Shown piece by piece: positions 62,767-63,314 of a DNA stretch of 64,000 nucleotides. A program made the translations under genes and the position numbers. Every line of letters begins with the position of its first letter. Positions within the stretch are counted from its first letter, which is position 1. A model generated the notes under the pieces. The model saw only the letters and a list, made by a program, of their open reading frames with translations, made no database searches and had not been told where the DNA came from. This stretch comes from an uncultured Verrucomicrobiae bacterium (GTDB lineage Bacteria > Chlamydiota > Chlamydiia > Chlamydiales > Rhabdochlamydiaceae). The stretch spans positions 864,997-928,996 of the forward strand of contig CAVSUE010000001.1 in assembly GCA_963731265.1 (NCBI GenBank). Direction: 5' to 3'.

Positions 62767-62789
62767 CGCACTATGCTAATTTTAGCCTA

Positions 62790-62901
62790 TGAACCCAGGC
62801 CTTAAGGCCTGGGATTAAGTTGGGGCCGAGTTTCGTACTCGGCCCAACATTGTTTTTGAAAATACCCGGCCCTTAAGGGCCGGGTTTCCGCCAGAGGACG
62901 G
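62790..62901 (-). mobile_element. IS605-derived mini-element, copy 3, inserted at the tnpA start codon
   Basis: Reverse-complement match to 4920-5032; abuts ATGAA at 62902. Confidence 0.82.
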
Positions 62902-63314
62902 ATGAAAAAGTCAATGATTTGAGGCATGGAAGAACATGCGTATTTGCAATGCACGTACACTTGGTCTTTGTTACAAAGTATCGAAGGAAAGTATTCACTC
63001 AACAAGTCATGCGTGAATTGAAGTTGATATTCACAAGCGTATGTAAAGACTTTGAGGCAACACTTATAGAATTCGATGGCGAGCAAGATCATGTGCAATT
63101 GCTTGTGAGTTATCCTCCAAAAATATCTGTTTCAAAACTTGTGAATTCCCTAAAGGGTGTATCATCACGTCTTCTTAGGAACAAAGGGTTTCCTTCTGTT
63201 CAACAGGCGCTTTGGGGAAAAAATCTCTGGTCGCCTAGTTATTTTGCGGGATCTTGTGGAGGTGCTCCAATTTCTATCATCCGACAATACATTGAAAATC
63301 AGCAATCACCCTAA
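62902..63314 (+). pseudogene. tnpA: IS200/IS605 Y1 transposase, apparently damaged
   Basis: HVHLVFVTKYRR, LKGVSSR, WSPSYF, YIENQ. ATG 62902 is out of frame (5-A run), and the HUH motif reads HVQ (63090-63098). Confidence 0.85.

Follow-up and report, generated by a model that had tools for sequence, protein, structure and literature searches.

Introduction

In the IS200/IS605 family of insertion sequences, short DNA guides that lie beside hairpins recognize the sites of cleavage and the target. The genes of IS605 from Helicobacter pylori are divergent, and those of the element described here have the same arrangement, with tnpB on the minus strand and tnpA on the plus strand. ISDra2 of Deinococcus radiodurans differs from our element in having co-directional genes, and also in its target, which is TTGAT as opposed to TTTAT. 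In other respects the two are alike: both combine a TnpB protein that has a D/E/D triad and a CxxC...CxxC finger with a Y1 HUH TnpA partner, both insert at a pentanucleotide target, and the omegaRNA of our element is expected, as in ISDra2, to be encoded at the 3' end of tnpB and the right end (RE). A further difference from ISDra2 is that the copy studied here has a broken tnpA and TnpB substitutions at conserved sites.

The ISGst elements of Geobacillus stearothermophilus bring together the same two pentamers that we find at this locus. In that system a single TnpA, GstTnpA, excises several ISGst families, with TAMs that include TTTAT (the proven TAM of GstTnpB2) and TTCAT (IscB family), and it mobilizes them in trans together with gene-less PATEs; most of the elements have no tnpA, and the role proposed for TnpB is to cut the donor joint once an element has been excised (Meers et al., 10.1101/2023.03.14.532601). 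Our locus departs from this system in that its TTCAT element is a 113-bp gene-less unit without an omegaRNA-like part and in that the genome lacks a working TnpA. It also differs from the ISGst PATEs in that the PATE found here ends in a Shine-Dalgarno (SD)-like motif and is concentrated on start codons. The PATEs of Haloquadratum resemble our 113-bp unit in being short, gene-less and multi-copy, with IS200/IS605-type subterminal hairpins and with neither inverted terminal repeats nor target duplication (PMC3119063), whereas about two-thirds of the copies in our family lie on ATGAA starts, with GGAGGA placed 4 nt ahead of the ATG.

Structure of the IS605-Group Element

The window, by which we mean the whole stretch of 64,000 nucleotides that was analyzed (G000:C1:864997-928996), belongs to a genome of 2.34 Mb in two contigs. 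Two full-length copies of an IS605-group element are present in this genome, one in the window (copy 1) and one at C1:315819-317530 (copy 2). The ends of the element were defined by aligning these copies with two metagenomic relatives (L003 and L036) and with a 75%-identical relative from a congeneric genome (L026), the flanks being different in all of them. Positions of the features are given in Table 1.

Table 1. Features of the IS605-group element and of the mini-element nested in it, by position in the window
Feature	Position	Strand	Remarks
Whole IS605-group element	61567-63382	minus	Top strand of the element is the minus strand of the window; 1,816 bp including the 113-bp insert, originally ~1,703 bp
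Predicted omegaRNA guide, 20 nt	61547-61566	minus	Flank 3' of RE; top-strand sequence starts AGGGGCGATC; position predicted from the arrangement in ISDra2 and Gst elements
Predicted omegaRNA scaffold	61567-61800	minus	tnpB 3' end plus RE
RE hairpin of the IS	61575-61593	minus	Imperfect; RE ends TTCAA at 61567-61571
tnpB	61615-62766	minus	383 aa, ORF open; Pfam OrfB_IS605 PF01385, Cas12f1-like_TNB PF07282, HTH_OrfB_IS605 PF12323
Original spacer between tnpB and tnpA start codons	62767-62788		22 bp
Gene-less mini-element (PATE-like)	62789-62901	minus	113 bp; its left end (LE) adjoins the tnpA ATG
Mini-element RE hairpin	62794-62813	minus	
Mini-element middle hairpin	62823-62845	minus	
Mini-element LE hairpin	62865-62884	minus	
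SD-like AGAGGA of the mini-element	62893-62898	plus	
ATGAA	62902-62906	plus	tnpA start codon; complement of the mini-element target TTCAT
tnpA pseudogene (Y1 HUH transposase)	62902-63314	plus	ATG at 62902; Pfam Y1_Tnp, 147 bits, profile positions 1-121
HUH codon change	63096-63098	plus	CAA; second His to Gln, H66Q in ancestral numbering
LE of the IS	63330-63382	minus	Imperfect hairpin at 63343-63363, beginning 17-18 nt from the cleavage site as read from the sequence and a comparison of ends
Insertion target 5' of LE and predicted TnpB TAM	63383-63387	minus	TTTAT on the top strand (ATAAA on the plus strand)

Subterminal hairpins are found at both ends of the element, there are no terminal inverted repeats, and insertion is 3' of a fixed TTTAT without target duplication. 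TTTAT adjoins the LE at three independent full-length sites and also in a relative in genome G002, and the RE terminates in TTCAA at four independent flanks. An accessory tnpB with OrfB_IS605 and Zn-finger TNB domains accompanies a Y1 HUH transposase gene (Pfam Y1_Tnp, PF01797), which is present though frameshifted; the catalytic Tyr in RQYIE is kept, but the HUH motif is not intact (HVQ). Judged by these features, the window copy is a member of the IS200/IS605 family by descent and not a demonstrably working one.

Disruption of tnpA

The window tnpA lacks one G after position 62915/16, and the frame accordingly reads MKKSMI* and stops at a TGA at 62920-22. The ancestral start, ATG AAA AAG TCA ATG GAT TTG AGG (MKKSMDLRHGR), is seen in copy 2, L003, L036 and one public contig, and the family consensus across 17 aligned homologues is MKKS[T/M][D/E]LRHGR. 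A preliminary description of this locus had proposed that the A-run was one A short of MKKVNDLRHGR. A frameshift is indeed present; however, the A-run is intact and the missing base is the G. The reading of the HUH motif as H-V-Q in the same description agrees with our comparison, in that the window TnpA reads DHVQLL where HVH is present in copy 2, in L003 and in each of the 17 homologues aligned. Related contigs from public runs, the best of which contained 27% of the words and derived from relatives, have C at 63098 and retain the extra G; no RNA run was among those listed. Compared with copy 2, L003, L036, the homologues and the public contigs, both the frameshift and H66Q are derived and are unique to the window copy.

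With L003 as the outgroup, the window branch of tnpA shows, in addition to the frameshift, three synonymous changes and two nonsynonymous ones, namely H66Q and a stop that comes two codons early, and this pattern suggests that the gene was under constraint until recently. Given the frameshift and the His to Gln change, the window copy should not be movable by its own TnpA, in line with the earlier proposal that the IS is immobilized. A search for other tnpA copies, suggested in the preliminary description, returned only copy 2: this 96%-complete genome has just two Y1_Tnp matches, both of them broken, and so it contains no intact Y1 transposase. Because of this, the IS and the mini-elements are stranded in the genome. 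The tnpA of copy 2 carries two indels and 13 nonsynonymous changes against one synonymous change. These changes were counted since the split from copy 1 (G000:C1:315895-316306, in L002), and the nonsynonymous share is above the neutral expectation of ~3:1.

In L036 and in three public runs, tnpA has an internal deletion of ~236-241 bp that removes the gene from the HUH motif to the stop and leaves the LE in place. The derivative is seen at L036:2232-2478 and as a joint at 63073->63315 in runs X1, X2 and X6, and its tnpB is open. It looks like a circulating non-autonomous, tnpB-only form. Loss of tnpA has therefore taken three routes within this IS family, namely frameshift plus H66Q in the window, a pair of indels in copy 2 and, in relatives, an internal deletion.

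TnpB and Its Predicted omegaRNA

The tnpB ORF is open over 383 aa in both genomic copies, L003, L036 and L026. Residues 1-367 of the window TnpB align with ISDra2 TnpB (8EXA/8H1J) with E = 1e-69, placing D189, E278 and D361 opposite ISDra2 D191, E278 and D361. These three residues and the four cysteines C333, C336, C351 and C354 are all invariant among 52 homologues and all present in the window copy, as expected from the earlier statement that TnpB keeps its RuvC acidic residues and Zn finger.

Outside these positions the window TnpB has eight private changes (D73E, G136E, I180L, D273H, S301R, Q325P, N353H and T374R). The window branch of tnpB shows eight nonsynonymous and three synonymous changes, compared with 13 and 27 on the outgroup branch (Fisher p = 0.035, from small counts with only 11 changes on the window branch). 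The 13:27 ratio indicates purifying selection on tnpB along the long outgroup branch. We compared the altered columns with 51 other homologues, down to 54% identity. G136, which aligns with ISDra2 G140, is G in 51 of the 51. D273 is D in 50 of them and aligns with ISDra2 E273, five residues ahead of the catalytic E278. At position 301 the others have S, G or A only, and at position 374 S or T only, with R unseen at either among the 51; at position 325 they have K, Q, R or E only, and P is likewise unseen. The TnpB of copy 2 alters the invariant T154. For the ISDra2 residues that correspond to G136 and D273, the main text of a TnpB mutational-scanning paper lists no values residue by residue. 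The claim that tnpB stays intact consequently holds for the ORF and the catalytic residues but not for the protein as a whole, with its 8:3 excess of private changes that includes near-invariant sites. The substitutions at G136 and D273 also make the activity of TnpB doubtful, and the same doubt applies to the further claim that an active RNA-guided nuclease is retained, given these changes and the loss of TnpA, and hence of a donor joint. Against decay of TnpB, there is as yet no stop or frameshift in tnpB, and every catalytic and Zn-binding residue is kept.

The last ~100 nt of the omegaRNA region are strongly conserved, and eight pairs show compensatory changes with a covariation term of ~0, the six sequences compared being too few to prove a structure. 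One nucleotide of the RE hairpin is missing from the window copy alone. An Rfam search of 61300-63600 gave chance-level matches only and no omegaRNA family. The predicted guides of three RE-bearing loci match the genome only at their own flanks, where they are preceded by TTCAA and not by a TAM.

A Mini-Element Nested in the IS

The gene-less unit between tnpB and tnpA belongs to a family that is represented in the genome by ~49 copies measuring 60 bp or more, which are 90-100% identical. As single-stranded DNA it folds into three strong hairpins (-38.3 kcal/mol, z = -8.0), and it has no ORF and no terminal inverted repeats. The insertion site is empty in copy 2, L003, L036 and the contigs of three public runs, all of which continue from GGCCT directly into ATGAAAAAGTCAATGG and have a spacer of 22 bp; in the public-run contigs the insert is missing at a joint of 62793->62916. 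The preliminary description was right to put the mini-element at the tnpA ATG within the tnpB/tnpA spacer, although it gave the spacer as 23 bp and not 22. Immediately 5' of the LE of the mini-element, TTCAT is found in 37 of 44 copies. The far (RE) end is TTCAC in 32 and TTCAT in nine of 43 copies. The family thus has the characters of PATEs: it is gene-less and multi-copy, its subterminal hairpins are IS200/IS605-like, and its target is fixed only beside the LE and is not duplicated, as comparison with the empty sites confirms. Because its LE is built like that of the IS, the 113-bp unit is, judged by its ends, a gene-less derivative of PATE type that shares the IS200/IS605 lineage of the IS. 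A parasitic mini-element thus lies within an IS of its own transposon superfamily, which accords with the earlier picture of a parasite within a parasite.

The likeness of the two left ends is close. The LE of the mini-element consists of TTCAT, 17 nt and CCCGGCCC-TTAA-GGGCCGGG, and that of the IS of TTTAT, 17-18 nt and CTCGG(T)CCC-TTTA-GGGCCGAG. On the 5' side of the LE hairpin the IS has GAGAAAA where the mini-element has GCGGAAA, and a candidate guide-base change of A to G, in a register that is inferred, would match the change of the target from T to C. Between the nested copy and the one at C1:486495 the identity is 100%, and a TnpA therefore acted recently. As far as gene content goes, the only helper candidate for the mini-element in this genome is the TnpA of this IS family.

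Two other readings of the insert have to be considered. That the targets differ, as the preliminary description stated, is clear from TTTAT at the three independent IS sites and TTCAT at most mini-element copies. The description took this difference to imply a different TnpA, and one could suppose that the mini-element relies on the transposase of another, now absent IS200/IS605 element. The consistency of the target difference would fit such a helper, as would the RE hairpin of the mini-element and its distance to the end, which are unlike those of the IS RE, and the several genomes of the genus that hold 30-40 copies and no Y1_Tnp match, so that a helper need not be resident. However, elements with different targets need not have different transposases, because the DNA guide of the element and not the transposase sets the target, and one Geobacillus TnpA moves both TTTAT and TTCAT families (10.1101/2023.03.14.532601). 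In addition, the mini-element agrees with the IS in its LE hairpin, in loop size and in the spacing of 17 nt, the guide candidate covaries with the target, and the genome has no other Y1 gene. We therefore see no need for a second TnpA and consider dependence on an absent one unlikely. The insert might also be mistaken for an ordinary DDE-type MITE with a duplicated 5-bp target, since ATGAA flanks both sides of the window copy. This reading we rejected as most improbable: the far end is TTCAC and not TTCAT in 32 of the 43 copies, so there is no duplication, and the family has subterminal hairpins in place of terminal inverted repeats, a one-sided fixed target and LE homology to an IS605 element.

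A search of 18 genomes of the genus found the mini-element in 10, and it is also present in two other genera of the family. Genomes G012, G013 and G024, from the same genus or family, have 30-42 matches at ~80% identity and zero Y1_Tnp matches, some of these genomes being incomplete. A resident transposase is thus not required for the mini-element family to persist, or it has even expanded in the absence of one. Within the window there are further copies at 4915-5033 (minus strand), ahead of a 62-aa ORF that begins MKILDKIAIILLVIGGLNWG, and, truncated, at 28938-29055. At G000:C2:65344-65571 two mini-elements lie in direct tandem, and the LE-side target of the first (GTGAA) is the RE end of the second.

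Mini-Elements at Start Codons

Given that TTCAT is the complement of ATGAA, the mini-element lands on start codons, and we asked how often it does so. Among the 44 mini-elements with a recognizable LE end, 28 adjoin an ORF of at least 100 aa that starts exactly at that ATG; as a baseline, 18.7% of genomic ATGAA sites start such an ORF. A crude gene model puts the expected share of start-type sites at 29-35% of the non-disruptive ATGAA sites; the observed share is 64%, an approximately two-fold excess (binomial p = 1e-6 to 1e-4). Part of the excess must come from purging of disruptive insertions. A Pfam scan of ten of the adjoining ORFs showed each of them to be a real gene, PyrF and TruA among them. 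In six of the ten, the domain profile starts 2-12 residues from the ATG that the mini-element adjoins: epimerase (residue 2 at profile position 1), Pyr_redox_2 (residue 3 at position 1), NadD-like cytidylyltransferase (residue 7 at position 1), methylpurine glycosylase (residue 8 at position 2), SdhA-like FAD_binding_2 (residue 6 at position 2) and UbiE (residue 12 at position 8). The same start-codon layout was seen in other genomes of the genus at four of the five loci examined.

The LE end of the mini-element reads GGAGGACGG immediately before ATGAA, and AGAGGACGG in the window copy, with a GGAGGA or AGAGGA motif 4 nt ahead of the ATG. The 16S rRNA of the genome carries a canonical anti-SD at its tail, and an SD-like motif precedes ~30% of long genes as against 8% of random positions. 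In the copies from other genomes the last 30 nt of the LE are unchanged, even at ~80% overall identity. The SD-like motif may supply a ribosome-binding site, and landing on the tnpA ATG appears to be ordinary behavior for the mini-element that probably does little harm in itself. The preliminary description had counted the insertion among the hits on tnpA, but the ORF is left whole, insertion at ATGAA starts of host genes is habitual and an SD-like motif is provided; nor is the insertion clearly a hit, because housekeeping genes with a mini-element at their start must still be expressed. Scans for sigma-70 sites and terminators in and around the insert found them no more frequent than in shuffled sequence, and no promoter was found.

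A more specific idea, which we offer tentatively and hold to be less probable than not, is that the mini-element is a start-codon-homing PATE, in which TTCAT would target Met-Lys/Asn starts and the LE would have evolved a working Shine-Dalgarno that keeps the genes it hits translatable. If so, the mini-element would amount to a translation-initiation region that is both mobile and portable, and by landing on tnpA it would, as a parasite, have re-wired the expression of its probable helper IS. A literature search for a published PATE or MITE that targets start codons and carries an SD found nothing specific; a paper on IS605 stem-loops in Borrelia concerns sequences downstream of lipoprotein genes.

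Discussion

The account that we consider probable is that of an IS605 copy which is stranded and decaying and in which a PATE is nested; it combines a broken tnpA, an insertion that probably does little harm, a mini-element mobilized in trans and a drifting TnpB. The mini-element inserted 3' of a bottom-strand TTCAT, exactly 5' of the tnpA ATGAA. This would be its normal behavior, the target being complementary to Met-Lys/Asn starts and the LE end giving GGAGGA, 4 nt and ATG. Before tnpA broke, the TnpA of the IS family itself most likely mobilized the mini-element in trans, because the two share the LE hairpin and its spacing and the difference in target is set by the DNA guide. With TnpA gone there would be no excision, and hence no TTTAT-flanked donor joint on which the TnpB-omegaRNA complex could act. 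Under the homing model (10.1101/2023.03.14.532601), TnpB would then have no donor joint to cut and would come under relaxed selection, such that its ORF and catalytic residues survive while damaging-looking substitutions accumulate.

This account would have to be revised if tnpA still worked. The 1-bp gap might be an assembly error, or might be bypassed by re-initiation: the TGA of the six-codon tnpA remnant overlaps a TTG at 62919, the resulting TTGA being directly visible in the sequence, and this TTG opens a 131-aa frame that spans the entire Y1_Tnp domain, covering all 121 profile positions at 147 bits, from which some TnpA could still be made. HVQ might likewise serve as a HUQ-type motif. 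HUQ is a functional HUH variant in the Reps of circoviruses and nanoviruses (PMC7468197), and for that reason H66Q need not be a null. The mere two nonsynonymous changes on the window branch and the complete identity of the nested mini-element to another copy, a sign of recent TnpA action, also point in this direction. On the other hand, no SD was found ahead of the TTG, and both HVH and the G are kept in all 17 aligned IS200-type TnpA homologues and in all close relatives, so that we judge a functional tnpA to be improbable. A different possibility is that the IS is immobilized and its TnpB has been kept, or domesticated, as an active RNA-guided nuclease whose expression is altered by the insert. 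The ORF that remains open in both genomic copies, L003, L036 and L026 is what such retention would predict, as are the intact RuvC triad and Zn finger, the conserved omegaRNA region with some compensatory pairs and the 13:27 ratio on the outgroup branch, and most tnpB genes in nature are without tnpA (10.1101/2023.03.14.532601). The private changes of the window copy are nevertheless 8:3 in favor of nonsynonymous, with G136E and D273H at near-invariant positions, and copy 2 alters an invariant residue of its own. Moreover, the guide has no target in the genome and there is no TnpA to make one, and the guide is plain flank, as in a selfish element, with no sign of a domesticated locus. Retention of an active nuclease thus appears doubtful to us, though clearly less so than a working tnpA.

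On the preferred reading of a stranded and decaying copy, the locus offers a view in one place of how IS605 elements usually end: tnpA breaks first, and tnpB outlives it and then drifts because without excision there is nothing to cut. The pattern fits the published homing model and argues against taking every open tnpB for an active or domesticated nuclease. Decay of an IS605 element with a nested PATE is an ordinary fate for the family, and both kinds of element are already known. Of more general interest than the decay is a PATE that sits at the start codons of essential genes with its own ribosome-binding motif, which bears on the persistence of tiny transposons in compact genomes and on the annotation of gene starts in chlamydial MAGs.

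Two further observations concern the right end of the IS. Outside the window, at G000:C1:1067069-1067338, there is a chimeric remnant made of two pieces in opposite orientation, one being the 63 nt of a mini-element nearest its RE and the other the final ~158 nt of tnpB followed by the RE. The joint shows no evident microhomology, and the remnant retains just the omegaRNA-coding part and its own flank-derived guide. In the window, the RE end of the IS (TTCAA; TTGAA on the plus strand, 61566-61571) provides the TGA stop (61568-70) of an upstream ORF of 264 aa (60776-61570). At the reconstructed empty site, the product of this ORF would keep the same last residues, with a TAA contributed by the TTTAT target.
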